Shown: piece by piece, positions 1,908-63,953 of the stretch | Layout: each line of letters opens with the position of its first letter | Numbering within the stretch: the stretch's first letter is position 1 | The notes under the pieces: generated by a model | Told to the model about the DNA's origin: nothing | The model's input: the letters and a program-made list of their open reading frames with translations, nothing else | Databases searched by the model: none | Assembly (NCBI GenBank): GCA_964645645.1 | Contig: CAZYBC010000001.1 | Location: forward strand, 6,064 to 70,063 | Length of the DNA stretch: 64,000 nucleotides | Origin: an uncultured Pseudomonadales bacterium | GTDB taxonomy: Bacteria > Patescibacteriota > Microgenomatia > UBA1400 > PJMF01 | Direction of reading: 5' to 3' | Translations under genes and position numbers: made by a program

Positions 1908-2123
1908 ACATATTTTTCCCTATGGATTGCTTAGGATTTTGTAAGAACAATTATACCAGTGAACACTCGATTAGCGGAACGCAATGTGAAGAATAAAAAA
2001 GTTGATGACTAGCAGATTTAACCTTAAAACAGAGTGAGTATTGTGAGGGTCACCCAATTATAAATAGAAACCATTGAGCCAGTTTTAAGGTTAGTAGAAA
2101 GTTTCAGAGAGCATGAAAACCAG

Positions 2124-3436: not shown

Positions 3437-3497
3437 GTCGATATACTAGCAATTGATGGCTATTGACAGTCTCTCAAATGAGTGTTAAATTGTCAAT

Positions 3498-3812: not shown

Positions 3813-4078
3813 ACTCAACTCAACACAAGTAAACAAAATTAAGTAATGACGACTTTGCTCGGTCACAAGTAGACCCAGCTTTATATCAAGAAATGACAGT
3901 AGACGATTTAGGTATAAAGTTGGGTTTTTTTGATGCAAAAAAGACATGAGTAATAAAAAAGATAATAAAAAACTAGATGAGGGTCTGCACCAATGGTTCG
4001 AACTGGTATTGGCACACATCCAGCATAAACAAGTAGTACAAAACACAACAAAAAAAGTTGTAAGTGAAAGGAAAGAAT

Positions 4079-4261
4079 ATGCCAAAAGTGTTAATCAAAG
4101 AAATTAGAGGCTACATCGGAGCAAAAGAATACTTTTGCCCCAATTGTGGTGAAGAATTAGGATTGAACGCACACATTGACCATCTGTTAATGGACAGTGA
4201 CCTTGAAAAGATTCAGGCGTACTTTCTCTACTGCAATCGGTGCGGAGAAAAGATCGAGTGA
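4079..4261 (+). CDS. Small zinc-ribbon protein (two CxxC pairs).
   Basis: CPNCGEE...CNRCGEK. The ATG at 4079 is preceded by GAAAGGAAAG (Shine-Dalgarno). The ORF track starts earlier, at GTG 4064. Confidence 0.45.
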   Translation: MPKVLIKEIRGYIGAKEYFCPNCGEELGLNAHIDHLLMDSDLEKIQAYFLYCNRCGEKIE

Positions 4262-4422
4262 AACCTTTTGAAGTTGAGCCAAATCAAACCTGAAAATAAA
4301 ATATAGGTATATAAAAAAAGAGGCTGTGTCCGTCTAAAGAAACAACCTCTTTTACATTACAAACAGCGTTTCCGCCGTTAGTGAATATAATATCACACAC
4401 GACGGAGCCTAGAAAGGAAGCT

Positions 4423-4926
4423 ATGACAACGGGCTTTGTATCCGTCGGAAGACGCCATTTAGAAATTGACCCCACAGATGTGGCAGTTAGAGATTACTTC
4501 GGAGTATCCCAACTATTCCGCTACTCCCTCGCTTTTTCCGAAAAAGCATACGACCAAACATTGATACTTGTTCCAGGGCATGATTGGGTACTTCATCCAG
4601 ATATAGCGGTACCTGACGACTTGAACCCCAACCTTAGAGGACAAGACTTGAACCTACAAGATCAAACTCAGTGGTTTTCCAGCATTGCAGATCAGATTCG
4701 TGAGTATTGCCCTGCTGAATCTGAATTATTTTTCCATTCTGGGAAATGGTTTGACCAGCTATTCACCTATCTCAGTCAACCAGATCCGATTTCAGGAAGT
4801 CCAACCTGTTATACCTTCCACACGCCAATGCGAGATCAACATTTAAGAATAGGAAAACAGTTGGCGTTCTATAAGTCGATGGTCGGGCAATTACCCTCAG
4901 TAAAAAATGAAAGGAGGGCTAAATGA
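4423..4926 (+). CDS. Hypothetical protein translationally coupled to the serine recombinase. It could be an accessory or directionality factor.
   Basis: ATG at 4423 is preceded by GAAAGGAAG. Its stop overlaps the recombinase start (ATGA at 4923-4926). Confidence 0.5.
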   Translation: MTTGFVSVGRRHLEIDPTDVAVRDYFGVSQLFRYSLAFSEKAYDQTLILVPGHDWVLHPDIAVPDDLNPNLRGQDLNLQDQTQWFSSIADQIREYCPAESELFFHSGKWFDQLFTYLSQPDPISGSPTCYTFHTPMRDQHLRIGKQLAFYKSMVGQLPSVKNERRAK

Positions 4927-6491
4927 ACAACAACGGAGCTAATACCGCCTATGCATACTGTCGAGTAAGTACAGACCGCCAAGCCAAAGAAGGATTTTCA
5001 CTTGAACAACAAAAGAAGTCCTGTGAACAACTCGCCAAAAGTCATTCAATTAAAATACTCGATTTTTATATCGATCGAGGAGAAACCGCCACTGCCTCGA
5101 ACCGCAAACAGTTTATGCAGATGTTAGAAGACTGTGAGCGCAAAGAAGTGAAGTACATCTTGGTATATCATACCGACCGATTTGCAAGAAATAGCCTAGA
5201 CCACCTCGTAATTAAGGACAGGTTAGCAAAACTTAACATTGCACTTCTGTCAGTCACCCAACCAATGATTGACTCATCTCCAGAGGGTAAGTTGCTCGAC
5301 ACTATGATGGCTTCCATCAACCAATTTTACAGTGACGATCTATCTAGAAAAACAATGCGTGGCATGTATGGTCGCTGGGAAAAGGGCTGGTGGGTATCTG
5401 GTGCACCACACGGCTATATGAATATTAATAAAGAAAATAGAATCACTAAAACATCTTTTACAGTCGAGAAGCAAAAGTACCTAGACTCGCTAGGTCGACC
5501 AATTATGCCAATTGAACAAGACCCTTTCGTAGCACCTTACATCAAGCAAGCATTTGAATTGTACGCCACAAATAACTACTCATATTTTAATCTGGGTCAA
5601 TACTTATTTGAAAAAGGACTAAAGACAGCAAATGGTAAACCCTTAGCCCACAGCACCATTCACCAGATCATAACGAACAGTTTTTATTTTGGAAAAATGC
5701 GCTGGAACAATGAAGAGAGGATGGGAAAACATGAACCACTTATTGATGAGGCACTTTTCAAACACTGTCAATTGATCGCAGCTCAAAAAAGGCACTTCAT
5801 CATTCGTCAACGCAAACATGACTTCTTACTGCGTGGTGTAGTTTTCTGCAATAGGTGTGGTCTGCGGTATACGGCCGAGTGGCACAAAATAAACTCTACT
5901 AGCTCAGACAAAATAGCCTATTACCACTGTGCTAAACGCCAGCCATGTAAATCCCCTTATGTAGAGATGGAAGAACTTGAATCTCTAGTTGAGAAACAAC
6001 TGCGTAAAGTTAAGTTCACCGATGAGTTCATCCAATTACTCAGTGACAAGGTAAAAGAGTACTTAGAGAATCAAGGATCCCGTAATAGTGAGGTGGAACA
6101 AATTCTAGTTAAACGCCGAGCAGAACTCAAAAAACAGAAAAGTGAGTTACTGTCTTACTTGGTTAACAAAGTGATTGATAAGGATGACTTTGCCGAGAAA
6201 AAAGCCGAGATTGAGAATGAAATTGAAGGTATCAATGAAGAGGTTGGTAAGCTAGATCGAACCAGCAATTTCGATTTTGACCTACTAGAGGAGGTACTAA
6301 AGTTAACTATGGACATTCCAGCCACCTACAATGACGCACCTCCAGAGCTCAAGAGACAGTATTTGAAGTTCTTCTATAATAAGGTGAAAGTGGACAACAA
6401 AAAAATTATAGCAGTTGAATTTTCTGATTTATTACTTGAGCTAATTTCTTTTAAGCGTCTTATAATAATCAGTAGAAGGCTCCCCGGGTAG
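4923..6491 (+). CDS. Large serine recombinase (resolvase/invertase catalytic domain, recombinase domain and zinc ribbon).
   Basis: YAYCRVSTDRQ catalytic serine motif. Length 522 aa. A C-terminal Cys cluster (CNRCG...YHCAKRQPC) is present. A strong SD (AAAGGAGGG) precedes the start. The stop TAG at 6489-6491 lies inside the 3' end of tRNA-Asn. Confidence 0.85.
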   Translation: MNNNGANTAYAYCRVSTDRQAKEGFSLEQQKKSCEQLAKSHSIKILDFYIDRGETATASNRKQFMQMLEDCERKEVKYILVYHTDRFARNSLDHLVIKDRLAKLNIALLSVTQPMIDSSPEGKLLDTMMASINQFYSDDLSRKTMRGMYGRWEKGWWVSGAPHGYMNINKENRITKTSFTVEKQKYLDSLGRPIMPIEQDPFVAPYIKQAFELYATNNYSYFNLGQYLFEKGLKTANGKPLAHSTIHQIITNSFYFGKMRWNNEERMGKHEPLIDEALFKHCQLIAAQKRHFIIRQRKHDFLLRGVVFCNRCGLRYTAEWHKINSTSSDKIAYYHCAKRQPCKSPYVEMEELESLVEKQLRKVKFTDEFIQLLSDKVKEYLENQGSRNSEVEQILVKRRAELKKQKSELLSYLVNKVIDKDDFAEKKAEIENEIEGINEEVGKLDRTSNFDFDLLEEVLKLTMDIPATYNDAPPELKRQYLKFFYNKVKVDNKKIIAVEFSDLLLELISFKRLIIISRRLPG

Positions 6492-6551
6492 GACTCGAAC
6501 CTACAACCTTGAAGTTAACAGCTTCCTGCTCTGCCATTGAGCTACCGAGGA
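6480..6551 (-). tRNA. tRNA-Asn (anticodon GTT).
   Basis: Hand-folded cloverleaf. Acceptor TCCTCGG/CCGGGGA, D-arm GCTC-AATGGCA-GAGC, anticodon loop CTGTTAA (U33, GUU, A37), T-arm GTAGG-TTCGAGT-CCTAC, discriminator G. The acceptor and anticodon loop match the E. coli tRNA-Asn pattern. Confidence 0.85.
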
Positions 6552-16869: not shown

Positions 16870-16880
16870 CTTATGCTATT

Positions 16881-16956
16881 AGACTTACTGCGAAATAAAA
16901 TTTCGTAGCGAAAAATTGATATTTAAGAGCGAAAAGGTTTGTTTCGCAGTAAGTCT
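16881..16956. repeat. MITE/REP-like hairpin repeat, copy A (76 bp), with 15-bp perfect terminal inverted repeats.
   Basis: AGACTTACTGCGAAA...TTTCGCAGTAAGTCT. Internal GCGAAAA subrepeats are present. The copy is intergenic between dus and the C39-like gene. Confidence 0.85.
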
Positions 16957-16963
16957 ATTATAA

Positions 16964-22824: not shown

Positions 22825-23475
22825 TTAATTTAAGCTCTGTAATTTTTGAAAAGCTGTATATAATTCTTTTTTTACCACAGATGTATTTATCTCTAAAGAA
22901 TGTTTTTCAAATAATTGCTGTAACTGATGATGTTGCTGAGAATGATTTTGCCAATAGCTAGGACTAATTTGCAGTACTTTTAATAATAAATCTCCAGGGT
23001 ATAAGTCACCTTCAACCAAAATATTTTTGTCTAAAATTTCCAAAGCAATCGGTATAATAATGTCTAAAGCCAAACTTTGGCCAATTAATAAACGTAATTG
23101 TTCGATACTTAAATTTCTCAATGGAATTTTGCCACAAGCTTTAATTTTATTAATTAATTCTGATTCAAAATCAAATTTTTCCCAATCCGATCCCAATAAT
23201 TGTTCTAAAGTTTTAAAACGCTCATCATTGGGAGGATTCTTAACATTTATGAATCTAGATTCTAACGTTCCCAATGAATGAGGAGCCAATAAATTTTTTA
23301 GCTCTTGCTCATCAATGATTTTTTGTTCATCCTGACCGGTTTGATAATTTCTTAGCCAATACTGATATTGGCCATTACCTAAATAACGTAAACCCCACTC
23401 ATCTTCTTGATGACGAGTATAAAACTCTACACCTGGCTGTTGCAGACGATTTAAAAAGGAGTTAAGGGTTAACAT
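22825..23475 (-). CDS. Hypothetical protein.
   Basis: 216-aa ORF with no recognisable motif. Confidence 0.45.
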   Translation of the reverse strand: MLTLNSFLNRLQQPGVEFYTRHQEDEWGLRYLGNGQYQYWLRNYQTGQDEQKIIDEQELKNLLAPHSLGTLESRFINVKNPPNDERFKTLEQLLGSDWEKFDFESELINKIKACGKIPLRNLSIEQLRLLIGQSLALDIIIPIALEILDKNILVEGDLYPGDLLLKVLQISPSYWQNHSQQHHQLQQLFEKHSLEINTSVVKKELYTAFQKLQSLN

Positions 23476-25980: not shown

Positions 25981-26270
25981 TCTCTATTTGCGTAATTAAT
26001 ATGCAAATAAATTAACATTGAAAAATCAAGTTATTTTTTAATAACCAGATCTTTTTCTAAAATTGACTAAGTCAAGATAAAAAGTTATAATAATTTACTT
26101 TTGAAACAGAGTCTAATAACTAGCAAAAGTCAAGAACAATAAATGAAATTAGCATTAGTAAATACAAATAAAATCTTTTATTCTTCTAGGGGTCGAGCTA
26201 AATAAGTCTTTCTTATTTATTACTCCACTCTTTTTATTGATTTAAGCTCAACGTGTTTCAAAGGGACAGT

Positions 26271-26307
26271 AGACTTACTGCGAAATAAAATTTCGTAGCG
26301 TAAGTCT
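26271..26307. repeat. MITE/REP-like repeat, copy B (37 bp, internally deleted).
   Basis: The first 30 nt are identical to copy A and are joined to the last 7 nt (TAAGTCT). Located between recA and rny. Confidence 0.8.
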
Positions 26308-26336
26308 AATTATCTAAACTGTTTAAGAAAGGCATT

Positions 26337-27947: not shown

Positions 27948-27960
27948 TAATTATTAATCT

Positions 27961-27996
27961 AACTAGTAATGAGGGTGTTTTCCCTTATTACTAGTT
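27961..27996 (+). other. Long stem-loop between rny and secG.
   Basis: AACTAGTAATGAGGG-TGTTTT-CCCTTATTACTAGTT is a 15-bp stem with one G.T pair. No T-run follows it. Confidence 0.5.
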
Positions 27997-28020
27997 AGTA
28001 AAAACTTATATAATAGAATC

Positions 28021-41449: not shown

Positions 41450-41637
41450 GTTGTCCTTTGCTATTTTATAAAATAAAAGCATTAACTTGCTTTCTTTTTT
41501 TATTATATATGAAAAAGAATAATAATTTCCAGATGTTATTCTCAGCATTTTTTTGTATAATTGAAAAGTTAAACCTAAACTTCTCAAAAAGTTAACTAAA
41601 AATTTGTTACAATAGCCAAGCAAATTAAAATTTTAAT

Positions 41638-41672
41638 AGACTTACTGCGAAATAAAATTTCGTAGTAAGTCT
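41638..41672. repeat. MITE/REP-like repeat, copy C (35 bp minimal hairpin).
   Basis: AGACTTACTGCGAAAT-AAA-ATTTCGTAGTAAGTCT is a 16-bp stem with one G.T pair. It lies 8 bp upstream of tRNA-Ser(GCT). Confidence 0.8.
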
Positions 41673-41680
41673 AATATTAA

Positions 41681-44261: not shown

Positions 44262-45329
44262 ATGACCAGAACTTTTAGTATCATTATTATTTTTCATAAT
44301 GAACAAGCTGGCTTAAAAAATTGCCTCCTATCTGTTTTAAAACAAAATTACCCTCAAAATAAATATCAAATAATTTTAGTAAATGATTCTTCTAAAGATA
44401 ATTCTGTTAAAACTATTCAAACTCTGCTTCAAGAACCAAATATTTCATTAATTAACTCCGATAAACCTTTAGGTATTTCTACTGCTAGAAATCTTGCTAT
44501 TAAAAAGGCCAAAGGAGAAATTTTATTTTTTATAGATGCTCATATCTATTTACAAAGAAATACTCTTTCAATAATTAATCAAAAATTAAATCAATATCCT
44601 CAAATTTCTGGAGTCTGTGGACAATATTCTGCTAAAGAAAAAAATGACTATAATGTTATTAGAGATTTACGAAGAATAATCAATTTTAAAAAAGCCGAGC
44701 AAGATTTTATTATTGATTTAGAAAATTTTACTACTTTTTCTATAGCCGTAGGCGCATATAAAAAAGAAGTTTTTAAAAATAATTTTTTCCCAGATCATTT
44801 TGAAAATAGTGCTGGAGAAGATGTTTATGTGCAATTAAAAGCTCATCATAATGGACACAAATTTCTTTATACCTCAGATATATCTGCATATCATGACGCA
44901 AAATTAAGTTTAAAAAAATTATTGACTAAATTAACTCAAGAGATAAAAGGCACTATTAATATAATTATTCATTCTATTGAAAATAATGATCACTTTAACT
45001 TACCTTTCTTGGAACATTTTTTAGATTATCCAATTTTAATTTATGTATTTTTAATTTCCTTTTTATTAACTAAAAATATTTATTTAGGAATAATTTTTTT
45101 ATTAGCCTTTATCATTAGATACAGTAAAACTGTACAAGCAATAAAAATTAAACCACAGTTTTTTATTCAATATTTAATTTTTTTAATTATTAAAGATTTT
45201 TTACAATTTATTGCTTTAACAACTCTATTATTCAATAAAAATGCAAAAATCTTTAACTATCTAATTACTATTAAAAAAAATCAATTAAAAAATTATTTTA
45301 AAATCTTACCATGTGTAAGTAGAAGATAA
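44262..45329 (+). CDS. Glycosyltransferase family 2 with a C-terminal membrane domain.
   Basis: FSIIIIFHNEQAGL...IILVNDSSKDNS...FIDAH. Confidence 0.75.
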   Translation: MTRTFSIIIIFHNEQAGLKNCLLSVLKQNYPQNKYQIILVNDSSKDNSVKTIQTLLQEPNISLINSDKPLGISTARNLAIKKAKGEILFFIDAHIYLQRNTLSIINQKLNQYPQISGVCGQYSAKEKNDYNVIRDLRRIINFKKAEQDFIIDLENFTTFSIAVGAYKKEVFKNNFFPDHFENSAGEDVYVQLKAHHNGHKFLYTSDISAYHDAKLSLKKLLTKLTQEIKGTINIIIHSIENNDHFNLPFLEHFLDYPILIYVFLISFLLTKNIYLGIIFLLAFIIRYSKTVQAIKIKPQFFIQYLIFLIIKDFLQFIALTTLLFNKNAKIFNYLITIKKNQLKNYFKILPCVSRR

Positions 45330-45339
45330 ATAAAAAAAT

Positions 45340-46506
45340 ATGTTAAAGAAAAAAATAGACTATACTAATCCTGGACATCTTAAACTTTGTATTCTTTCAG
45401 AAGGAATTAATGTCCAAGCAATTAAAACTTACCAAAAAATTCAATTTGCAGAAAATACTTATCAGTATGGCAATGGTAATAAATTAGATGAAATTAAATC
45501 AAAATATCCGGCCTATCTAATTTTAGCTGATGAAACTAATGTTGGGCTTAATTATAATAAAACTTCTCCTTGGTCATTAACTTATCAAGATAAAACTAAA
45601 AAATTATTATTAACTTATCAAGATAAAATTATTACAGAAGCTTGGCTTTCTCCACAACCTAATTTTTATTGTAAAAAATTAAGTAATGGTCAAGATATTA
45701 CCAGTGTTTTAGGCCTTTATGGTCTCCATTGCTTAACCTTTTTTGTCAGAGGTTGGTGTATGTTTATTAATAAAAATCAAGCCTGCCAATTTTGTTCTTT
45801 AGGTTTAGCCAGAAAAGAAGTTGGTAAAAAGAATGTTTTAACAACCACCCCACAATTAGCTAAAGAAGCATTAAAGATTGCTTTAGCTAGTGATAAAAAC
45901 ATTGTTGAATATATCAACTATAGTTCTGGTACTTATCCAGATTTTGATAAAGGTATAGAAGACCAATATTTAATCTTAAAAGAAATTAAAGATATTCTAC
46001 CTAAAGATAAATATATTAAACAACACATGTTAACTTTCCCTCCAGCTAATAAAAAATGGATTGAAAAATTATTCGAAGCTGGTTTAGGAAGCTTAAATTA
46101 TTCACTAGAAATCTTTGACCGTGATTTGTTTGCTAAAATTTGTCCAGGAAAAAATAATTTTTTTGGTTATGATCGTTTTATTCAATCATTTAAAGAAGCT
46201 GTTGAGATTTTTGGCAAAGGAAAAATGTATGTTAATTTTGTTGGAGGACTAGAACCTTTAGAATCTTTATTAACTGGCATTAATTATTTTGCTGACTTGG
46301 GTATCGCGTCTTCAATTAATGTCTTTCATCCAGATAAAGGCACTCCATTAGAAAATCATCCTAAACCTTCAATTGAATATTTATTTGCCATGGTAGAAGA
46401 AATGCATCGTATTTATAAAAAGCATCATTTCACTTGTATTTATCCAAAAGGAGGAACTAGAAATTCTTTAGATACTGAGGTTTGGAAAGGATATTTTGCT
46501 AACTAA
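45340..46506 (+). CDS. Hypothetical protein with a Cys cluster (Cx8Cx8Cx2C), possibly radical-SAM-like.
   Basis: CLTFFVRGWCMFINKNQACQFC, and a later VGGLEPL that resembles a GGEP motif. The spacing is non-canonical. Confidence 0.45.
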   Translation: MLKKKIDYTNPGHLKLCILSEGINVQAIKTYQKIQFAENTYQYGNGNKLDEIKSKYPAYLILADETNVGLNYNKTSPWSLTYQDKTKKLLLTYQDKIITEAWLSPQPNFYCKKLSNGQDITSVLGLYGLHCLTFFVRGWCMFINKNQACQFCSLGLARKEVGKKNVLTTTPQLAKEALKIALASDKNIVEYINYSSGTYPDFDKGIEDQYLILKEIKDILPKDKYIKQHMLTFPPANKKWIEKLFEAGLGSLNYSLEIFDRDLFAKICPGKNNFFGYDRFIQSFKEAVEIFGKGKMYVNFVGGLEPLESLLTGINYFADLGIASSINVFHPDKGTPLENHPKPSIEYLFAMVEEMHRIYKKHHFTCIYPKGGTRNSLDTEVWKGYFAN

Positions 46507-47497
46507 TCAACAAATTATTAACCAGCTAAAGAATAGAATAAACTCTTTAAAAAAAATTCAATTAAATGATTATTATGATCAATTACAAAAAAAAATTCCT
46601 TTAGAAGAATTAATTTTTAAAATTATTACTTCTTCCAAATTTAGAAAATGGGCAATTAATCAAGAAGTTAAAGATAAAATAAAAGAAGCAATTAAATTAA
46701 ATATAGAAAAAAATGAACCGATAAAAATTTCCTTTACTTTTGGTGGTTATAAGTTATGGAGAATTCCTTCTTATCCATTGGCAGATTGGGCAGAATTTTT
46801 TGCCTTACTTTTTTATTATGATTGGTTAAAATTAATCACCATTTTTTATAAACCAGGTATAATTTTTAATTTTTATTCTGATGATGTAATTGTTAACCAA
46901 ATAAACAATGTTCCAAATTCAGACATCAAAAAATATATTAGTTCTTTTGAAGAATTACTTGATTTCATTAACTCAAAAATAATGAGAAACTTTAAATTTA
47001 AACTTATCAGAATTAAAAATATTTACTCATCGTTAGAATTCAATCAAGAGTTATTAAAAAATCTAAATCAAATCAAAGAATTAAAACTTCAACCTACAAA
47101 TAATGAACTAAAAGCTACTCAATTAAATTATAAATTTAATAATCAAAATCTTGTTGATCAAAAAAAACGATTTTTATTATTACAATCATTTGAACTGCAT
47201 GCAGCTTATAGAAATTTAAGTAAAAGAAAACAGATCTGTAAAACCACTGATCAAATTATTGTTTATGCTGATCATTTTCCTACGGCAATTGGATTAGGGA
47301 CTACTAAGGATTCTATTACTAAATTTTGGATTGGCACTGGTATAATTCAAGCTAATCAAAAAAATATTCAATATACAATTTATTCACCAGTAACTTATAA
47401 AGAAAAAGTTAATTTTATAACTGAAATCAAAACAAATTTAATTAATTTAAAAAATCCAAATTTTTCTAAATTATTAATTTTAAGAAAGGAAAAATAA
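46496..47497 (+). CDS. Hypothetical protein.
   Basis: 333-aa ORF overlapping the upstream gene, extremely AT-rich. Confidence 0.45.
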   Translation: MLTNQQIINQLKNRINSLKKIQLNDYYDQLQKKIPLEELIFKIITSSKFRKWAINQEVKDKIKEAIKLNIEKNEPIKISFTFGGYKLWRIPSYPLADWAEFFALLFYYDWLKLITIFYKPGIIFNFYSDDVIVNQINNVPNSDIKKYISSFEELLDFINSKIMRNFKFKLIRIKNIYSSLEFNQELLKNLNQIKELKLQPTNNELKATQLNYKFNNQNLVDQKKRFLLLQSFELHAAYRNLSKRKQICKTTDQIIVYADHFPTAIGLGTTKDSITKFWIGTGIIQANQKNIQYTIYSPVTYKEKVNFITEIKTNLINLKNPNFSKLLILRKEK

Positions 47498-47499
47498 AT

Positions 47500-47685
47500 A
47501 TGAAAACTATAGAAGATGGCAAAAATGCTTATATTCATCAATCTGATGGATTACTAGAATGGGTTAAACAACAAGCTAAACAAAGAAGGCAAGCTAGACA
47601 AGAACGAAAAAAAAGACAAGCCGAAAGAGATGAAGCGAACCAAACTAAAGAAAGAGCAAAAGCTCAACATCATAAAATAGATTAA
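47500..47685 (+). CDS. Small highly basic protein.
   Basis: 61 aa with a KRQ-rich C-terminus, followed by a terminator. Confidence 0.4.
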   Translation: MKTIEDGKNAYIHQSDGLLEWVKQQAKQRRQARQERKKRQAERDEANQTKERAKAQHHKID

Positions 47686-47900: not shown

Positions 47901-49187
47901 ATGCTATTTAATCTAAGCACAACCTACCGGTCTAAGAGTAACTTTTATGAACACAATCTAAAATATATTAAGTGGTTGGAGTTAGCTGGTTCATTGATGT
48001 TTTTAATCCCAGTTTGGGTAAATTTTGAATTGCGTTATCTCAATTTAGCTCAATTAGCTATCATTGAAGCGGCAATTTCATTTACTCAATTAATTTTAGA
48101 ATTACCTACTGGCGCTTTAGCGGATTTATTAGGTAGAAAAAAAACTATTACTTTTGGCTATTTATTGCATGCCACTGGTTTTTTATTTTTCTGGTCTGCC
48201 AAAACTTTTAATGGTTTTTTATTTAGTTCACTGTTTTTTGGCTTTGGTGAAGCATTAATTAGTGGCGCTAAAGAAGCTTTAGTATTTGATACATTAAAAC
48301 AAGCTCATCAAGAAAAAACTTTTACCAAATTAATGAACTTTTTACAAAAGCGGTTTTATTGGGGAATGGCAATTGCTACTTTAATTGGTGGATTAACTTA
48401 TCAAATTAATATTCATTTGCCACTTTTCTTAAATATTTTAGCAATTTTAACTTGCGCCTATTTTGCTTCTCAATTACGTGAACCAATTTTGGATAGTGAA
48501 AAATTTACTTTAGCTATTTATCTTAAACAAACTAAGCAAGGTTTTAGTGAATTATTTAAAACACCTAAATCTCGTCGCATTTCTTTTTACTACATTTTAT
48601 TAGCCGCAGTGAGTTGGCCAATGGTAATTAGTTTAAAAAATATTGCCATGAGTAAAGTGGGTTTAACGGAATTACAAATTGGTTTAATTTTACCAGTGAT
48701 GAATTTATTAAATGTTTACTTTTTTCATTTTATGTTAAAAAAGCAAGCCTTTAAAAATTTGCCTGCAACTTTTATTGCTTTAGCTTTGGTAGCTGGTCTA
48801 AGTTGGTTGGGGTTAGCAGCTAACTTTTCTATTTTCATGGTTTTAATCGTAGCCTTTACCTTGTCATTTATTTCTAGTTGCCGCTGGAATGTTATTGGGG
48901 AATTAACTAATAGTTGTTATTCTAGTAAAAATCGAGCCACTGCTATTTCTACTTTAAGCATGATTATTGGCTTAAGTTATGGCAGCGTGATGATTTTATT
49001 TAGTATTTTCAGTAATTCAACAATTAATCCTGTGATTTTAATTGCTTTATTTATGGCCGGTTTAGCTGGCATAGTTTTACTACCTTTAGCAATTAATTTA
49101 AGCAATAACTTAGCTAACAAAAAAATCAATTTTGAACCTCAAATAGAAAATCCTTTAGAAAAAAGTATTAGCCTTACTGCAAAATAA
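47901..49187 (+). CDS. MFS transporter.
   Basis: TGALADLLGRKKTI (MFS motif A), 12 predicted TM segments, and a strong SD (AAGGAGG) upstream. Confidence 0.75.
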   Translation: MLFNLSTTYRSKSNFYEHNLKYIKWLELAGSLMFLIPVWVNFELRYLNLAQLAIIEAAISFTQLILELPTGALADLLGRKKTITFGYLLHATGFLFFWSAKTFNGFLFSSLFFGFGEALISGAKEALVFDTLKQAHQEKTFTKLMNFLQKRFYWGMAIATLIGGLTYQINIHLPLFLNILAILTCAYFASQLREPILDSEKFTLAIYLKQTKQGFSELFKTPKSRRISFYYILLAAVSWPMVISLKNIAMSKVGLTELQIGLILPVMNLLNVYFFHFMLKKQAFKNLPATFIALALVAGLSWLGLAANFSIFMVLIVAFTLSFISSCRWNVIGELTNSCYSSKNRATAISTLSMIIGLSYGSVMILFSIFSNSTINPVILIALFMAGLAGIVLLPLAINLSNNLANKKINFEPQIENPLEKSISLTAK

Positions 49188-49388
49188 AATTTCGTAGCGA
49201 AGAATTGATATTTAAGAGCGAAAAGGTTTGTTTTCGAACGAAGTAGTAGCTGTGCTACTTCGAGCGAGAAAACAACCTTTACAGCCTTAAATAGCAATTC
49301 TGTAGCCGAAAGGCTTATTTTACAGTAAGGCTATTTAACAACAAGGCCTTAATAGCCTTGCTACAAAATTTTATTTCTCAGTAAGTCT
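49170..49388. repeat. MITE/REP-like repeat, copy D (219 bp composite).
   Basis: The first 64 nt are about 95% identical to copy A. The right end, GCTACAAAATTTTATTTCTCAGTAAGTCT, is the inverted left TIR. Inside is a nested element with AGCCTTACTG/CAGTAAGGCT ends and a long nested palindrome (CGAAGTAGTAGC-TGTG-CTACTTCG). Confidence 0.8.
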
Positions 49389-49439
49389 AACATTTCTGTT
49401 ATGATAATTAAGAATCAAAAATAGAGAAAGAAAGGACAG

Positions 49440-49673
49440 ATGAAAAAAATCGTCACCAGTCAATTTGTTGTTTTATTAATTGGCACCATTTTTGCTTGGT
49501 CTAATTTTGGCTATGAACTTTATAGCTATTTAAATAACAAGCCATGCGAATTAGGTTGTTCTGCTTCTCCTGCCGTGGTTAATCCTTTTTATACCCCTTG
49601 TTTTTATGGCGCTTTATTCTTTCTTACTGCCTTTGTGCATAGTGTGTTGTTATTAAAAAAAGTTAAAAAATAA
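49440..49673 (+). CDS. Small Cys-containing membrane protein.
   Basis: 77-aa ORF with two hydrophobic segments and four Cys. Confidence 0.4.
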   Translation: MKKIVTSQFVVLLIGTIFAWSNFGYELYSYLNNKPCELGCSASPAVVNPFYTPCFYGALFFLTAFVHSVLLLKKVKK

Positions 49674-49693
49674 CTTTACTACCTAAAAATTAT

Positions 49694-50731
49694 ATGGCGA
49701 AAAAAAAAGTTTTATTAGGTATGAGTGGCGGAGTTGATAGCTCTGTAACAGCGGCCATTTTATTAAAACAAGGCTTTGAAGTTATTGGCGCAACTTTTCA
49801 GCTACAAGAAAAACAGACCAGTACTAATGATGCTGCTAAAGTGGCTGAACAATTAGGAATTGAGCATCTTTTTTTAGATTTAAAAAATCAATTTAAAGAT
49901 CGCGTTATTGATTATTTTATTAATAGTTATCTTCATGGTGAAACACCAAATCCTTGCACCACTTGTAATCGCTTCATTAAATTTGACGCTTTGTTGAATA
50001 AAGCTTTAGCCATGGGGATTGATTACATTGCCACTGGTCATTATGCCAGAGTGGAATTTGATGAAAACAAACAAAGATACTTACTAAAAAAATCTTTGGC
50101 TGGGGGCAAAGATCAATCTTATGTTTTATATGCTTTAACACAAGCTCAATTAGCCAGAGTAATTTTTCCTTTAGGTAATTTTACCAAACCAGCCATTCGT
50201 GCTAAAGCTAAAGAGTTAGGCCTTAGTGTAGCTGATAAACCAGATAGTCAAGAAATTTGTTTTATTCCTGATAATAATTATCGCCACTTTATTCAAAGCC
50301 AAAATACAAGCAAAATTAAACCAGGCAATTTTGTTGATCAAAACGGCAAAATTTTAGGTCAACATACTGGCATTACTAATTACACCATTGGTCAAAGAAC
50401 TGGTTTAGGGATTGCTTTAGGTTATCCAATTTACGTTACTAAAATTGATCCAGTCAAAAATGAAGTAGTGCTCGGCACTAATCAACAGCTCTTTACTACC
50501 ACTCTTTATGCTAAAGATTTAAATTTTATTGCTATTAAAAAATTAGAAGAACCTTTAAAAATTAAAGCCAAAATCCGTTCTAGCGCTTTAGCAGAATCAG
50601 CCACTATTTACCCAGCTGACAATGAGCAAATTAAATTAGTTTTTGATCAAGCTCAACGCGCCATTACTCCTGGGCAAGCTGTGGTTTTTTATGATGACGA
50701 TGTGGTAATTGGCGGTGGAAAAATAATCTAA
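49694..50731 (+). CDS. mnmA: tRNA-specific 2-thiouridylase MnmA.
   Basis: LLGMSGGVDSSV (PP-loop) and a catalytic Cys in PCTTCN. Confidence 0.9.
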   Translation: MAKKKVLLGMSGGVDSSVTAAILLKQGFEVIGATFQLQEKQTSTNDAAKVAEQLGIEHLFLDLKNQFKDRVIDYFINSYLHGETPNPCTTCNRFIKFDALLNKALAMGIDYIATGHYARVEFDENKQRYLLKKSLAGGKDQSYVLYALTQAQLARVIFPLGNFTKPAIRAKAKELGLSVADKPDSQEICFIPDNNYRHFIQSQNTSKIKPGNFVDQNGKILGQHTGITNYTIGQRTGLGIALGYPIYVTKIDPVKNEVVLGTNQQLFTTTLYAKDLNFIAIKKLEEPLKIKAKIRSSALAESATIYPADNEQIKLVFDQAQRAITPGQAVVFYDDDVVIGGGKII

Positions 50732-57866: not shown

Positions 57867-57969
57867 GCATTCATAGTTCAATAGGATAGAATAGGGTTTT
57901 GACTAAGGACATAATCTATTTATGATTTTAGTTAAGCCTCAGCTGGCAGTTCGAATCTGCCTGAATGCA
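57867..57969 (+). other. Non-canonical tRNA-like element, possibly a pseudo-tRNA or att remnant.
   Basis: Canonical T-arm GGCAG-TTCGAAT-CTGCC followed by TGAATGC + A. A perfect 7-nt complement, GCATTCA, lies 95 nt upstream. The D-arm and anticodon arm cannot be folded canonically. The total is 103 nt. Confidence 0.4.
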
Positions 57970-58037
57970 CAATACTTAAGCAACATACAATTTACTCATA
58001 TGTTCTAGTAAAAAACCGCTTAAAATCTTACATTAAA

Positions 58038-59630
58038 ATGACAAAAATATTAAAAACACCAACTTCAAACACTAGCAAAGAACAAGAACGTGCCGAATTG
58101 CACCGAACTATCTGGCAAATTGCCAATGATCTACGTGGGAGTGTTGATGGTTGGGATTTTAAATCATATGTATTAGGAATGCTTTTTTACCGCTTTATTA
58201 GTGAAAATCTAACTAACTATATTAATGATGACGAACGCCGTTCTGGAAGCTTAAACTTTGACTATGCAAAACTTACAGACAAAGAAGCAGAATTTGGTCG
58301 GACCGATACTGTAAAAGAAAAAGGCTTCTATATTTTACCCAGCGAATTGTTTGTTAACGTCTGCAAGAAAGCCAAAAACGACAAAAATCTTAATGAGACA
58401 CTAGCAAAAATTTTTGCGAACATTGAAAATTCAGCTAAAGGTTCAACAAGCGAAGATGATCTCAAAGGTTTATTTGCTGACTTAGACGTTAACTCAAGTA
58501 AACTTGGCAATACTGTTGAACACCGCAATCAAAAACTGGTTAAGATTATTGAGGCAGTCAGCAATCTTCGCCTTGGCAATTACTCAGACCATACCATTGA
58601 TGCTTTTGGAGACGCTTACGAATTTTTAATGACCATGTATGCCTCTAATGCTGGTAAATCTGGAGGTGAATTTTATACACCTCAAGAAGTAAGTGAATTA
58701 CTGGCAGAAATTACTACCGTTGGTAAAAAAGAAGTCAATAAAGTTTATGACCCGGCTTGTGGCTCTGGTTCTCTGCTTCTTAAATTTGCCAAAGTGCTTG
58801 GTAAAGAAAATGTCCGCCAAGGATTTTTTGGCCAAGAAATTAATCTCACTACTTACAACTTATGTCGCATCAACATGTTTTTGCACGACATTAATTACAA
58901 TAATTTTGATATTGCCCTTGGCGATACTTTGCTTGAACCAAAACATTGGGATGATGAACCATTTGATGCAATTGTATCCAATCCTCCCTATTCAATTAAA
59001 TGGGAAGGAGATGCTAATCCGCTTCTTATCAATGATCCCCGCTTCTCACCGGCTGGAGTACTCGCCCCAAAAGGCAAGGCTGATTTAGCTTTTACCATGC
59101 ACATGCTTTCCTGGTTATCTACCGGTGGTACAGCCGCAATTGTTGAATTCCCAGGAGTTCTTTACCGCGGAGGAGCTGAACAAAAAATTAGAAAATATCT
59201 TCTTGAAAATAACTATGTCGATACAGTCATTCAATTGCCACCAGATTTGTTTTTTGGGACTACAATTGCAACTTGTGTCATTGTCCTTAAAAAAAGCAAA
59301 AAAGATAATAAAACTTTGTTTATTGACGCTTCAAAAGAATTTATCAGAAATGGCAATAAAAATAAATTAAGCGAAACAAACCGTCAAAAAATTTTAGAAG
59401 CCTTTATGGCTCGTCAAGATAGCAAATATTTTGCCAAATTAGTGGATAACAAAGCAATTGCAGAGAATGAGTACAACATCTCGGTTTCTAGCTATGTGGA
59501 ACAGGAAGATACACGAGAAGTAATTGATATTACCAAGTTGAATGCTGAGATAAAGCAGATTGTGGCTAGACAACAAGAGCTAAGGTTAGCGATTGATGGA
59601 ATAGTAAAGGATATTGAAGGAAAAGATTAA
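58038..59630 (+). CDS. hsdM: Type I restriction-modification N6-adenine DNA methyltransferase subunit M.
   Basis: HsdM N-terminal domain, the SAM motif DPACGSGSLL, and the catalytic NPPY (IVSNPPYSIKW). Confidence 0.9.
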   Translation: MTKILKTPTSNTSKEQERAELHRTIWQIANDLRGSVDGWDFKSYVLGMLFYRFISENLTNYINDDERRSGSLNFDYAKLTDKEAEFGRTDTVKEKGFYILPSELFVNVCKKAKNDKNLNETLAKIFANIENSAKGSTSEDDLKGLFADLDVNSSKLGNTVEHRNQKLVKIIEAVSNLRLGNYSDHTIDAFGDAYEFLMTMYASNAGKSGGEFYTPQEVSELLAEITTVGKKEVNKVYDPACGSGSLLLKFAKVLGKENVRQGFFGQEINLTTYNLCRINMFLHDINYNNFDIALGDTLLEPKHWDDEPFDAIVSNPPYSIKWEGDANPLLINDPRFSPAGVLAPKGKADLAFTMHMLSWLSTGGTAAIVEFPGVLYRGGAEQKIRKYLLENNYVDTVIQLPPDLFFGTTIATCVIVLKKSKKDNKTLFIDASKEFIRNGNKNKLSETNRQKILEAFMARQDSKYFAKLVDNKAIAENEYNISVSSYVEQEDTREVIDITKLNAEIKQIVARQQELRLAIDGIVKDIEGKD

Positions 59631-59635
59631 AAACT

Positions 59636-61921
59636 ATGGAAATCAAAAGTATAAAAGAAATAAAAAACATTGGCATATTTGCAAATTTTGCAAATGGAGC
59701 AACTTTTCGCTTTGATGAAAAGATTACTTTTATTTATGGATTAAATACTTTTGGAAAGACTACACTTACGGATATTTTTCAATCTTTAAAAGACAATAAC
59801 TCAAATATAATAAATTCAAGAAGAACAATCCCCACACAACAAGGAAATCAAAAAGTAGTAATCTCAATATTTGATCAAAATCCTCCTGAAAAAGATTTAA
59901 TATTTCAAAACAATAATTGGGGACAAAATAGCTTATCAGAACATCTTGAAGTTTTTGGAACAGAATTTATTCATAGGAATCTATTTACAGGGTTATCTAT
60001 TGAAAGAGAAAATAAGGAGAATTTTACAGATTTTATTTTAGGAGAAGAAGGAGCAAAAATCGCTGAAAATATAGAAAATGATAAAAAAATTCTCGGGGAA
60101 AAGACAAGAAATAAAATAAATAAATTACCAAGGTTCATTAAAGAAAAATCAGAAAAAGAAATTACAGATTTTTTAAAGTTGGATATTTCAAGTTTAGATA
60201 AAAACAAAATTGAAGCAGATTTATTTAAATTAAAAACCGAAAAACAGGAAGAAGAAAGAAGATTGAAAGAACCTCAAAAAATTCTTAATTTAGAAAATCC
60301 AATTAAAGTAGTAATTCCTGAATTTACAATTTTAGAGAATTTAGAAAAAATAAATGATTATCTACAAAAAAATTATTCAAATATTAAAGAAAAGTTTTTA
60401 AAACGTTTAAACGAACATATAAATGAAAATTCTCTAAATCAAGATATCGCTGAAAACTGGATAAAACAAGGTTTTCATAATACAAAAGATAAAAACGGTA
60501 ATTGCTTGTTTTGTGGTCAGCCTTTAGTAAATGCAAAATATATTATTAATCTTTACGATAAATATTTTGATGTAAATTATTCAAACTATATCACGGAAAT
60601 AGAAACAGGTCTTAAAACAGAATTTAAAAATATTGAAAGTGCTTATTTTAACTTTCAAATTAAATTTACAAATCAATTTACTAGTGCTTCAAAATTTAAA
60701 GAGCTTATTTTAGATCAGTCATTTCAGGAGATATTAAATAATTTTGAAAAAAAACTTAAATGTATTAGTGATGATTCATTGGAAAATCAAAGGAAAATGC
60801 TAATACAAGCTATTAAAAAGAAAGCTGAACAGAAAAACAAAAAACCTTATATTTCAATAGATAAAATTAGTTTTGATGAATTTAAAAATAATCTGCAATC
60901 CTATATTAAATACTTGGCAGAAATAAATGATTTAATTGAAGAAACAGAGGAAAATATAAATAGTTTTAAAGAACAATACAAAGACACTTCAAAAATAACA
61001 GGCAAAATAAATGAGTTAAAGAAAAATATTGAAATTTTAGAATATCAAAAAGCAAGAATAGATCAAAACAAAGATTGTGAAGTTTATTTACAGGAAATTA
61101 AAGATATTAAAATTTTAAGCAAAAAAATTGATGAAAATAGGAAAAATCTCGAAGATAATCAAGATGAGTATTTAAAAAAATATTTTGTAAAAATAAACGA
61201 ATTATTTAAAAAATTTGGAAGTCATAATTTCATACTTGATAAAGTACAAGAAAACTTAGGGAATAAACCAGTTTATACTCTAAAAGTTAAATTTCATAAT
61301 CAAGAAATTTCAAATGAACAAATGAAAACTGTTTTTAGTGAGTCAGATAGAAGAGCTTTGGCTTTATCAATATTTTGGGCAAAAATTGAACTAAAAAAAG
61401 AAGTAGAAAAGCAAAAAACAATTGTTGTTTTAGATGATCCGATTACTAGTTTTGATGATAATAGAACGATGAATTTTATTTATTATATTAAAGATAATCT
61501 GCAAGAACTAAAGCAAATAATTATTTTTACTCATTACAATAAATTTCTATCAGATTACAATAAATTCACACAAGAAAAACACAAAACATATAAAATAGTA
61601 AGTGGAGGGAAACTAGATAATTTTGATTTAGATACTTTTTTAAAGAGCGAGTATGTTCAAACACTTGAAAAAATAGAAAACTTTATTAATGGAAAATCTA
61701 AAATTGATCCTGCGATTTTTAGATCATTTATTGATGTTTTATATAAACCTATATTTTCTGGAATAACACCAAATAACATTATTAATGATTTATATACAAA
61801 ATGTTGTACATTTAATCACAATGGTTTTAATTATGAACAAGAAGAAGAGAATGTAAGAAATTTTGCAAAAGAAATGAAAGAAAAACTTTATTCTTTTGAA
61901 TATAGAAATAATTCCGATTAA
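59636..61921 (+). CDS. AAA_13-family ATPase (PrrC/RloC-like) inserted between hsdM and hsdS. Candidate anticodon-nuclease or abortive-infection ATPase.
   Basis: N-terminal Walker A GLNTFGKTT. A central CxxC (GNCLFCGQPL) sits within a predicted coiled-coil. Walker B TIVVLDDPITSFD and H-loop IIIFTHYNKF are present. 761 aa. It sits in the classic hsdM-x-hsdS position. Confidence 0.6.
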   Translation: MEIKSIKEIKNIGIFANFANGATFRFDEKITFIYGLNTFGKTTLTDIFQSLKDNNSNIINSRRTIPTQQGNQKVVISIFDQNPPEKDLIFQNNNWGQNSLSEHLEVFGTEFIHRNLFTGLSIERENKENFTDFILGEEGAKIAENIENDKKILGEKTRNKINKLPRFIKEKSEKEITDFLKLDISSLDKNKIEADLFKLKTEKQEEERRLKEPQKILNLENPIKVVIPEFTILENLEKINDYLQKNYSNIKEKFLKRLNEHINENSLNQDIAENWIKQGFHNTKDKNGNCLFCGQPLVNAKYIINLYDKYFDVNYSNYITEIETGLKTEFKNIESAYFNFQIKFTNQFTSASKFKELILDQSFQEILNNFEKKLKCISDDSLENQRKMLIQAIKKKAEQKNKKPYISIDKISFDEFKNNLQSYIKYLAEINDLIEETEENINSFKEQYKDTSKITGKINELKKNIEILEYQKARIDQNKDCEVYLQEIKDIKILSKKIDENRKNLEDNQDEYLKKYFVKINELFKKFGSHNFILDKVQENLGNKPVYTLKVKFHNQEISNEQMKTVFSESDRRALALSIFWAKIELKKEVEKQKTIVVLDDPITSFDDNRTMNFIYYIKDNLQELKQIIIFTHYNKFLSDYNKFTQEKHKTYKIVSGGKLDNFDLDTFLKSEYVQTLEKIENFINGKSKIDPAIFRSFIDVLYKPIFSGITPNNIINDLYTKCCTFNHNGFNYEQEEENVRNFAKEMKEKLYSFEYRNNSD

Positions 61922-61924
61922 ACT

Positions 61925-63154
61925 ATGCCAACTCACCAATCCAAAATCGACCGCCTCATTAGCGACCTTTGTCCCAACGGTGTTGAGTATAAAACCCTGG
62001 GTGAGATAGGAACTTTCGTTCGAGGTAGCGGTTTACAAAAAACTAACTTTACTGAAACTGGAGTAGGATGCATTCACTATGGTCAAATCTACACCTACTA
62101 CAAATTATTTACTAAAAAGACAAAATCTTTTGTATCTTCTGAGCTTGCAGATAAATTAAAAAAGGTTCAAAAAGGAAACCTTGTAATTGCTTGTACTAGT
62201 GAAAATGTTGAAGATGTATGTAAATCTATTGTTTGGCTTGGGGATAAAGATATAGTTACTGGTGGTCACTCAACTATTTTTAAACACAACGAGAACCCGT
62301 TATACGTTGCTTATTTTTTTCAATCTAAAAATTTTTTTGATCAGAAAACAAAATACGTTAAGGGTACCAAAGTAATAGAAATGTCAGCTAAAGACTTGGC
62401 TAAAATAAAAATCCCCCTTCCTCCCCTTCTAATTCAAGCCGAAATCGTCAAAATTCTTGATAATTTTACAGAGCTGGAAGCAGAGCTGGAAGCAGAGCTG
62501 GAAGCAAGGAAGAAGCAATATGAGTACTATCGAGCAAGCTTGTTTGGAGTTAAAGATGCTATTTATAAAAACTTAGGGGATGTGTGTTATATAACATCTG
62601 GGGGGACTCCATCTAAATTAAAAAAGGAATATTGGGATAGTGGGGATATTCCTTGGATAAAATCTGAATCATGTAAAAATCAACCTGTGTATTCAGCGAC
62701 AAACTTTATAGCCGCAGATGGTTTGAAGAACTCTGGTGCCAAACTATTAGATTCTGATACCACGTTAATGGCTCTTGTTGGTGCAACCATTTTTAAAACC
62801 GCATTTTTAGAATTTAAAGCCAGCACAAATCAAAATATTGCGAGTATTAAGTCAAAAGATAAATTAATATTGAAGGATAAGTTCATCTTTTATTATTTAA
62901 CTCAACTTTATTTCGATTTAAAAAATAAAATGAAAAATTATGGAATGCTCAATTTAACAACACTAAGATCATTTAAAATTCCCATACCACCAATTAAAGA
63001 ACAACAACGCATCGTTTCCATTCTCGATAAATTTGACGCCCTCGTTAACGATATCTCTATTGGCCTACCAGCCGAACTTAGTGCAAGACGACAACAATAC
63101 GAGTATTATCGAAATAAGCTGCTGACATTTAAACCATTAAAAAATTATGCCTAA
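61925..63154 (+). CDS. hsdS: Type I restriction-modification specificity subunit S, with two target-recognition domains.
   Basis: Two TRDs are separated by the conserved spacers LPPLLIQAEIVKILD...KKQYEYYR and LPAELSARRQQYEYYRNKLL. The central region contains the tandem ELEAELEAELEA. Confidence 0.88.
   Translation: MPTHQSKIDRLISDLCPNGVEYKTLGEIGTFVRGSGLQKTNFTETGVGCIHYGQIYTYYKLFTKKTKSFVSSELADKLKKVQKGNLVIACTSENVEDVCKSIVWLGDKDIVTGGHSTIFKHNENPLYVAYFFQSKNFFDQKTKYVKGTKVIEMSAKDLAKIKIPLPPLLIQAEIVKILDNFTELEAELEAELEARKKQYEYYRASLFGVKDAIYKNLGDVCYITSGGTPSKLKKEYWDSGDIPWIKSESCKNQPVYSATNFIAADGLKNSGAKLLDSDTTLMALVGATIFKTAFLEFKASTNQNIASIKSKDKLILKDKFIFYYLTQLYFDLKNKMKNYGMLNLTTLRSFKIPIPPIKEQQRIVSILDKFDALVNDISIGLPAELSARRQQYEYYRNKLLTFKPLKNYA
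62471..62506 (+). repeat. Perfect 12-bp tandem repeat x3 (GAGCTGGAAGCA) inside hsdS.
   Basis: Read directly from the sequence. It encodes (ELEA)3 in the central conserved spacer of HsdS. Confidence 0.95.
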
Positions 63155-63953
63155 AATAACCGTACAACAAACAGAAATTTCAATCCTTACTAAGCTCGGA
63201 AATGATTATATTTCTTTGACTGATATTGCAAAATATAAGAGTGATGATCCAACTGCAACAATTTCAAACTGGATGAGAAATCGTAATACTATCGAATATT
63301 TGGGCATCTGGGAGACCTTATATAATTCTGAGTTTAAACCCCTCGAATTCGAGGGGTTTAGAAAACAAGCAGGACTCAATGCTTTTACTATATCACCTCA
63401 AAAATGGATAGAAAAAACGAATGCAAAAGGAATCATCTCCAAATCAGGTCGCTATGGAGGCACCTATGCTCATAAAGATATTGCCTTAAAATTTGCTGCC
63501 TGGATTTCTATTGAATTTGAACTGTACTTTATAAAAGAATTTCAAAGACTTAAAGAGGCAGAGCAAAAACAGCTCGGTTGGTCGGCCAAACGTGAATTGG
63601 CTAAAATCAATTATCATATCCACACCGATGCCATCAAGAAAAATCTTATCCCACCAAAGCTTACTAAAGCTCAAATTAACTTTGTTTATGCCAACGAAGC
63701 CGACGTGCTTAACGTTGCTTTATTTGGCATAACTGCCAAACAATGGCGAGATATTAATGCTAATTTAAAAGGTAACATTCGCGACTACGCCAATATTCAT
63801 CAACTGATTTGTTTGTCTAACCTAGAAAATCTTAATGCCGTTTTTATTAACGATAAATTACCTCAAAGTGAACGTTTGGAAAAACTAAACAATATTGCCA
63901 TCGGCCAAATGAAAGTGTTACAAGAAATAGAAGGAAGAAAATTACTCAAATAA
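63147..63953 (+). CDS. KilA-N/Bro-N-like domain protein.
   Basis: N-terminal YISLTDIAKY...ISNWMRNRNTIEYLGIWE resembles the KilA-N domain. It overlaps the hsdS stop. Confidence 0.45.
   Translation: MPKITVQQTEISILTKLGNDYISLTDIAKYKSDDPTATISNWMRNRNTIEYLGIWETLYNSEFKPLEFEGFRKQAGLNAFTISPQKWIEKTNAKGIISKSGRYGGTYAHKDIALKFAAWISIEFELYFIKEFQRLKEAEQKQLGWSAKRELAKINYHIHTDAIKKNLIPPKLTKAQINFVYANEADVLNVALFGITAKQWRDINANLKGNIRDYANIHQLICLSNLENLNAVFINDKLPQSERLEKLNNIAIGQMKVLQEIEGRKLLK

Follow-up and report, generated by a model that had tools for sequence, protein, structure and literature searches.

The window, the whole 64-kb stretch of DNA that was analysed, is AT-rich (~32% G+C), and the proteins encoded in it have their best matches in metagenome-assembled genomes of Patescibacteria/'Pacebacteria'. 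In the right-hand part of the window, an MFS transporter gene (Pfam MFS_1, E = 6e-17) runs at its 3' end into a palindromic repeat, here called copy D, which is followed by a conserved gene of 77 amino acids that is syntenic in the related contig L001. The features of this locus, in the order of their position, are as follows.

47901..49187, plus strand: MFS transporter gene
49169..49198, plus strand: left terminal inverted repeat of D (L), found with nhmmer and a profile of the family ends (E = 2e-9)
49169..49333: unit X, 165 nt, a complete hairpin with the variant tips TAGCC...GGCTA
49222..49280: central palindrome of X, with the loop TGTG at 49251-49254, the apical stem in every predicted fold
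49315..49333, minus strand: inner right end of D (R1), which pairs with L inside X; its 19 nt are 95% complementary to 49169-49187
49334..49389: unit Y, 56 nt, read as a truncated right arm, of the canonical tip type, from a second copy
49360..49389, minus strand: outer right terminal inverted repeat of D (R2), canonical type (nhmmer E = 1.3e-8)
49440..49673, plus strand: gene of 77 amino acids downstream of D

The arrangement of these ends (L-R1-R2) indicates that D is a composite, in which a complete variant copy of the repeat, X, abuts a truncated canonical copy, Y. A preliminary description of this DNA had reported that the left 64 nt of D match another copy of the repeat (copy A, below) at about 95% and that the right 30 nt are the inverted terminal repeat, and both similarities are borne out: 61 of 64 positions (95%) agree on the left, and on the right, 49360-49389 carries the 30-nt family end TAGACTTACTGCGAAATAAAATTTCGTAGC in inverted form, identical at 28 of 30 positions to A and B and at 26 of 30 to the left end of D itself. 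R2 is likewise 93-94% complementary to the left ends of A and B, while the inner right end, TTATTTTACAGTAAGGCTA, is complementary to the left tip, TAGCCTTACTGCAAAATAA, at 18 of 19 positions. Compared with the canonical end TAGACTTACTGCGAAAT, position 4 (A to C) and position 13 (G to A) are altered on both arms of X, which is therefore a coherent unit with co-varying ends. X also aligns with its own reverse complement (75% over 170 columns, E = 1.6e-24), and the long palindrome with a TGTG loop that had been described earlier is indeed present, at 49222-49280 (AAAGGTTTGTTTTCG..CGAAGTAGTAGC-TGTG-CTACTTCG..GAAAACAACCTTT). The inner 26 nt of Y resemble the right arm of X by eye (AACAAC..GCCTTAATAGC), a resemblance to which a scored alignment of the arms gives only a weak score (17). 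The preliminary description had given D an extent of 219 bp (49170-49388) and had placed an element with variant ends inside it. Its view of D as a composite and its variant ends are retained, but the bounds become 49169-49389 (221 nt, with the terminal T and A), and the variant element is not nested, since X starts at the left terminus of D and contains the left 64 nt.

Prediction of the secondary structure of D, a check that the preliminary description had suggested, yields a single long hairpin with a z-score of about -10. As DNA, D is predicted to form one long end-to-end hairpin of -53 kcal/mol (z = -10.4), and as RNA it reaches -86 kcal/mol (z = -10.2), with none of 200 shuffled D sequences folding as stably; X folded alone reaches -72 kcal/mol as RNA. 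The hairpin spans the stop codon of the MFS gene and extends into the spacer before the 77-aa gene, a probable operon spacer, and an effect of the predicted structure at the RNA level (processing, stability, or read-through) is plausible.

D belongs to a dispersed palindromic repeat that occurs at four loci within the window.

16880-16957: copy A, 78 nt, between the gene of a C39-like peptidase and dus, both on the minus strand
26270-26308: copy B, 39 nt, a minimal hairpin in the recA-rny spacer
41637-41673: copy C, 37 nt, a minimal hairpin with a 17-bp stem, 7 nt upstream of tRNA-Ser(GCT)
49169-49389: copy D, 221 nt, the composite of X and Y and the largest of the four copies

Matches to the parts shared by the copies occur far above expectation, with five matches in the window to the 25-nt core CTTACTGNNAAATAAAATTTNGTAG (0.01 expected) and seven to the 11-nt tip TAGMCTTACTG (0.06 expected). 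A search of the whole window with the nhmmer profile of the 30-nt family ends finds eight ends, every one of them within loci A-D. The family end is a 30-nt terminal inverted repeat that carries a small palindrome of its own, and the near-identity of this end in A, B, and C (29-30 of 30 positions) suggests that the repeat has spread recently. Copy A consists of the equivalent of the left 64 nt of D fused straight to a 13-nt right tip, with terminal arms of 23 nt that are 91% complementary, and retains only the left arm of the central palindrome; copies B and C have kept only the tips and the small palindrome within the terminal repeat. Judged by their sequences, A, B, and C look like internal-deletion derivatives of a unit resembling D or X in which the tips were retained, and a full family unit of ~165-220 nt with 30-nt terminal inverted repeats is the best explanation of the family, whose copies span 37-221 nt.

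Several characteristics of these copies are those of a MITE. They are short (under ~500 bp) and have no coding capacity of their own, the only open reading frame of at least 40 amino acids in D (49139..49297, minus strand, TTG start) extending out of the repeat into the MFS gene. They have terminal inverted repeats (26 of 30 positions for the 30-nt ends of D, 18 of 19 for the 19-nt ends of X), and similar copies are dispersed over four loci in 64 kb. A different reading of the same copies is that they are REP-like elements moved by a RAYT (IS200/IS605-like) via single-stranded hairpins and without target duplication, D being a BIME-like cluster. Copies B and C (37-39 nt) are intergenic, perfect hairpins of the size of a REP, D groups several related arms side by side as REP/BIME systems with a RAYT do (PMC2817692), the compensatory changes on the two arms of X would suit an enzyme that recognises hairpins, and no direct repeats are seen besides an ambiguous TA. 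However, long (30-nt) true terminal inverted repeats around a unique, non-repeated interior of 100-160 nt are not the architecture of a REP, and the GTAG/GTGG 5' head is missing: the tips read TAGAC...GTCTA, with GTAG found only inside the stem (B and C). The density is also low (4 loci per 64 kb), and the open reading frames scanned in the window include no match to Y1_Tnp and no RAYT gene flanked by copies. Taken together, these features make a REP-like origin unlikely.

The junction between D and the MFS gene can be read directly from the end of the open reading frame, AAA AGT ATT / AGC CTT ACT GCA AAA TAA, which encodes KSI / SLTAK stop. The bases contributed by the repeat are 49170-49187, that is, 18 nt (15 coding nucleotides and the stop), or 19 nt if counted from 49169; the preliminary description had counted 17, whereas its attribution of SLTAK and the TAA to the element agrees with the present analysis. 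The five closest orthologs of the MFS protein (56-71% identity) end in EQQIP, EQQQP, EQQEP, ARQTP, and ERQGP, the DNA of the ortholog 3' ends reading GAA CAR CAR nnn CCN stop, and the protein of the window diverges from them precisely at the first base of the repeat. It had been proposed that the overlap would be coincidental if orthologs without the repeat ended in the same residues; none of the five ends in SLTAK, and the claim is not refuted. Translated in frame 2, the canonical family end gives RLTAK-stop and the D variant gives SLTAK-stop, so the tail is a property of the repeat. The derivation of SLTAK and the TAA from the element is thus well supported by comparison of the sequences, and the identical public-database entry for this protein of 428 amino acids (P0001) bears a repeat-derived tail. 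Because more distant MFS homologs terminate ~20 residues earlier, the C-terminal tail appears to be dispensable, and the effect on the protein is likely to be neutral, the tail being presumably cytoplasmic, variable, and missing in those homologs. D is probably selfish DNA that is near-neutral for the MFS protein.

The contig L001, whose MFS protein is 71% identical, shares the gene order of the window (MFS, 77-aa gene, mnmA, DUF4153) and provides an empty site for comparison. The spacer between the MFS and 77-aa genes is 73 nt in L001, without the repeat, versus 252 nt in the window. Filled and empty sites were compared by alignment to L001 after removal of the element. With the repeat excised, the window aligns with L001 on both flanks, homology restarting at CTGTTATGATAATTAAGA, 6 nt past the repeat, and the DNA of the 77-aa gene aligning from the ribosome-binding region onward; ~13-15 nt, corresponding to the native last codons and stop, have no counterpart in the window. 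The empty site in L001 and the ortholog ends support the earlier view that the element inserted into or next to the 3' end of a coding sequence, with the amendment that the insertion is imperfect: some 13-15 nt from the ancestral end of the gene, its native stop among them, are missing. This native end may have been lost by a deletion, either during insertion or between two adjacent insertions, or through subsequent decay of a remnant that no longer coded, and two adjacent insertions would also account for the X+Y structure. A reconstruction of the site that keeps one TA scores 187 against 182 in alignment with L001, a difference that rests on 4 nt (AACA) only and is not evidence.

The collinearity with L001 bears on two further explanations. 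Palindromic repeats are error-prone in assembly, and the DNA comes from an uncultured genome (P0001 is encoded on an 84.9-kb NCBI contig), so mis-assembly of the repeat might be thought to have produced the X+Y composite or the point at which it joins the MFS gene. Both flanks of D are, however, colinear with L001, the MFS reading frame stays open to a stop at a protein length like that of the orthologs, and X and Y differ at several positions, which is not what a simple duplicated read path would give; an artefact of this kind is very unlikely. It could also be supposed that D is an attC-like site of an integron, closing a gene cassette on its 3' side. Sites of the attC type, too, are imperfect palindromes of about this size, and they often lie over the stop of the cassette ORF; their core sites have the consensus RYYYAAC / GTTRRRY, to which the tips GCCTTAC / GTAAGGC bear a loose likeness. 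Yet the third base of GTAAGGC violates GTTRRRY, the copies form no array but are scattered at distances of 8-15 kb through a set of housekeeping genes (recA, rny, dus, tRNA-Ser), the window shows no gene for an integron integrase, and the MFS gene of L001 stands in the same chromosomal context without the element. An attC-like site is accordingly so improbable that it hardly deserves weight.

Presence and absence of the repeat at orthologous sites was also followed at other loci, in comparisons that are between species and involve diverged relatives. The nearest relatives have an MFS protein of 71% and a RecA of 88% identity, and their recA-rny and secG-SBP spacers are too diverged to be aligned with those of the window. 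In the relatives fetched around recA (RecA 88% and 86% identical), no counterpart of copy B was found in the recA-rny spacer of L005/L006, which was read directly, or in the L012 locus containing this spacer, which was scanned with the motifs and the profile. No member of the family was found in ~100 kb of DNA from relatives (L001-L003, L005, L006, and L009-L013).

The repeat was also sought beyond the close relatives. The 25-nt core has no match among metagenome contigs, neither the core nor either of two tip-gap-tip patterns has one among viral contigs, and blastn of D against plasmids and phages gives no match; a single match to the core in a genome contig (L004) was rejected as a chance match inside a Bacteroidetes coding region. 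A looser tip-loop-tip pattern recovered one true relative, a 43-nt hairpin in JGI metagenomes (L007/L008; TAGACTTACTGAAAAATAAGAAATATATTTCTCAGTAAGTCTA) whose 11-nt tips are those of the window (TAGACTTACTG) and whose interior is different. The L007 contig, with orthologs of 54-82% amino-acid identity to the window, carries this hairpin between secG and an SBP_bac_5 gene; the corresponding spacer measures 4 nt in the window, 35 nt in L005, and 65 nt in L012, all without the hairpin. L007 also holds, at 2196-2255, a further diverged hairpin that has only GACTTACT...AGTAAGTC in common with the family. Constant tips with differing interiors across diverged genomes are what would be expected of sequences recognised by a transposase. 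A broader proposal, that hairpins with TAGACTTACTG tips form a superfamily specific to Patescibacteria, with tips constant across genera, turnover of the interior, no recognisable transposase nearby, and either an unrecognised mobilising enzyme or domestication, is improbable on present evidence. If it were true and the hairpins had been domesticated, they might serve as RNase Y/III processing sites or as insulators between the transcripts of tightly packed genes, and the compensatory changes in the tips of X would reflect selection on pairing.

Copies A-D all have TA at both boundaries, and AT stands at both boundaries of one diverged hairpin of L007. The TA flanks are compatible with duplication of a TA target, as in RUP and the Correia elements (PMC2229807), but TA and AT are self-complementary, which makes a duplication indistinguishable from an extension of the inverted repeat, so the TA flanks are not proof of target duplication. 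No longer direct repeats were seen flanking the copies, and no longer element bounded by family ends was found in the window. Among the ~55 window ORFs scanned with Pfam there is no transposase (DDE or Y1), the sole recombinase being a large serine recombinase that adjoins tRNA-Asn.

Other roles for D were also considered. D has no match in Rfam, either at gathering thresholds over the whole window or at permissive E-values over 49100-49450, and a scan of 48900-49700 for promoter and intrinsic-terminator consensus sequences found none in or just after D. The sequence past the stem of D (ACATTTCTGTTATG) has no U-tract, and an intrinsic (Rho-independent) terminator was rejected on these grounds; an uptake sequence was rejected because the density of copies is far too low. 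A more general form of this idea is that the copies are non-mobile hairpins maintained by selection for a function (terminators or attenuators, RNase processing, mRNA stability, or protein binding), the overlap with the MFS stop being regulatory. The location of all copies in short spacers beside gene ends or starts, the extreme stability of the folds, and the conservation in two diverged genomes of the tips, though not of the interiors, would fit such a role. Against it, the orthologous spacers of relatives lack copies, nested deletions have given the copies sizes of between 37 and 221 nt, orientation relative to the neighbouring genes is inconsistent (A lies amid minus-strand genes, D amid plus-strand genes), and the stems lack both a U-tract and a counterpart in Rfam. 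Selection for function as the origin of the family is therefore considered quite unlikely, although copies that began as selfish DNA could also have a secondary function.

Comparison with known systems suggests that the closest analogues are the QMITEs of Coxiella, and that MITEs of the Correia/RUP type and, more loosely, the Rickettsia palindromic elements (RPEs) are further analogues of the repeat in D. The QMITEs belong to Coxiella burnetii. In that organism, QMITE1 and QMITE2 extend 1-50 bp into functional genes at their 3' ends with little change in protein length, and in enhC a QMITE supplies C-terminal residues (PMC5896051). Like the D family, QMITE1 and QMITE2 are short and non-coding, have terminal inverted repeats and a highly stable stem, and occur in both full-size and small deletion forms. 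They differ in having no sequence similarity to the D family and in belonging to a gammaproteobacterium as opposed to Patescibacteria, and also in number and flanks: QMITEs occur in ~50 copies per genome with variable direct repeats of 2-3 nt, whereas the D family has four copies in the window and always TA. The Correia elements (NEMIS) of Neisseria and the RUP elements of Streptococcus pneumoniae are MITEs of 100-160 nt with inverted ends of ~26 nt that insert at TA, the presumed mover of RUP is an IS630-type transposase acting in trans, and fusions of MITEs with ORFs have been reviewed (PMC2229807). They resemble the D family in forming a single end-to-end stem-loop in transcripts and in carrying stops in many frames. 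Their sequences are nevertheless unrelated, a TA duplication in the D family is a possible reading of its flanks, and no IS630-like partner, IHF site, or outward promoter was detected for the D family in the window. The RPEs share with D that they are palindromic repeats of a reduced genome that join coding sequences. RPEs are inserted within genes without disturbing the frame, and translation passes through them, while translation into the D element ends within 0-8 codons in every frame, and for this reason the D element can remodel only the extreme C-terminus of a protein.

The reading that best accommodates these observations is that the D family is a small, lineage-restricted, non-autonomous, MITE-like non-coding repeat in an AT-rich Patescibacteria (CPR) genome, and this is considered probable. 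In this scenario, a transposase encoded elsewhere in the genome would recognise the conserved tips and move the repeat in trans, possibly with duplication of a TA target at insertion. Two copies would have fused to give D, the complete variant X being joined to the right arm, Y, of a canonical copy, and the element would have inserted at the extreme 3' end of the MFS gene. The canonical terminal repeat holds stop codons in all three frames within its 30 nt, and because of these stops, five codons and the TAA of the repeat would have replaced the ancestral end, the gene now reading SLTAK and TAA instead of E-Q-Q-x-P-stop. The displaced native 3' end would have been lost by deletion at insertion, between neighbouring insertions, or through later decay.

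No new mechanism is involved, as this kind of element and its effect on gene ends are already well known in other bacteria, and related ORF fusions have been documented for Neisseria, Rickettsia, and enterobacterial repeats. A full-text search of a library of papers found none describing MITEs in Patescibacteria, and the D repeat family therefore appears to be undescribed. Patescibacteria (CPR) genomes are generally regarded as streamlined and very small. The family documents MITE-like repeats in such a genome and offers a clear example of a repeat that rewrites how a conserved gene ends, both its final codons and its stop, with the consequence for annotation that part of a public protein (P0001) is repeat-derived. 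The ends of the repeat could potentially be used as strain markers for this lineage.

The genes that abut the MFS_1 transporter gene on its upstream side form a group that is strongly AT-rich (G+C 25-27%) and comprises the following features:

44262-47685, the whole group
within 44262-47685, a glycosyltransferase
45340-46506, a radical SAM protein
46496-47497, a DIT1/PvcA-like protein
47500-47685, a 61-aa ORF

This group may represent a small cluster for biosynthesis or export, and the genes upstream of the MFS gene in L001, a syntenic relative locus that lacks the repeat, appear unlike those of the window.

Hairpins other than copies A-D of the repeat family were found in the window and in L007, a related metagenomic contig carrying a 43-nt hairpin whose 11-nt tips are identical to those of the family:

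L007 2196-2255, a second hairpin of 60 nt, with ends ATGACTTACT...AGTAAGTCAT
window 27958-28001, a stem-loop with a near-perfect 17-bp stem, CTAACTAGTAATGAGGG..CCCTTATTACTAGTTAG

The 60-nt hairpin has only an 8-nt core in common with the repeat family. In the flank of the 43-nt hairpin (L007 14200-14216), the sequence TAGACTTCTACAG partially repeats the element tip, and could be a remnant of another repeat copy or a footprint. The window stem-loop, located directly past the rny stop codon and ahead of secG, is not related to the repeat family; its probable role is as a terminator or a processing hairpin.

Integrated elements are suggested at the left end of the window and in L005, the closest recA relative:

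window 4923-6491, a large serine recombinase gene overlapping the end of the neighbouring tRNA-Asn
window 6478-6551, tRNA-Asn
L005 262-9693, a block directly upstream of recA

Left of the window recombinase gene, the G+C content is 38-42% (versus ~32% elsewhere), and ORFs without Pfam matches and a DUF6884 gene are present; the region 1-6551 is probably an element integrated at tRNA-Asn. The L005 block, which has no counterpart in the window, encodes a tyrosine integrase, a LexA-like repressor, a DNA methylase, a helicase-like protein and a large serine recombinase, and looks like an integrated mobile element.

Three further features of the window were recorded:

22825-23475, minus strand, an ORF matching CdiI_3, a domain of immunity to contact-dependent inhibition (E = 5.5e-23)
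58038-63953, a type I restriction-modification locus and a KilA-N domain gene
57867-57970, plus strand, a tRNA-Leu(TAG) gene whose anticodon loop is interrupted by a 27-nt intervening sequence

No obvious toxin gene was identified adjoining the CdiI_3 ORF. The restriction-modification locus, which starts just downstream of tRNA-Leu(TAG), is ordered hsdM, AAA_13 ATPase gene, hsdS, with the ATPase gene constituting an insertion that separates hsdM from hsdS, and the KilA-N domain gene comes after the locus; G+C content falls to 23% at 60-62 kb. The tRNA-Leu(TAG) gene was missed by ARAGORN (default settings) and scored 44.7 bits with the Rfam tRNA model (insert of 32 nt). Its intervening sequence lies at a non-canonical position (33/34); short introns such as this one are uncommon in bacteria.
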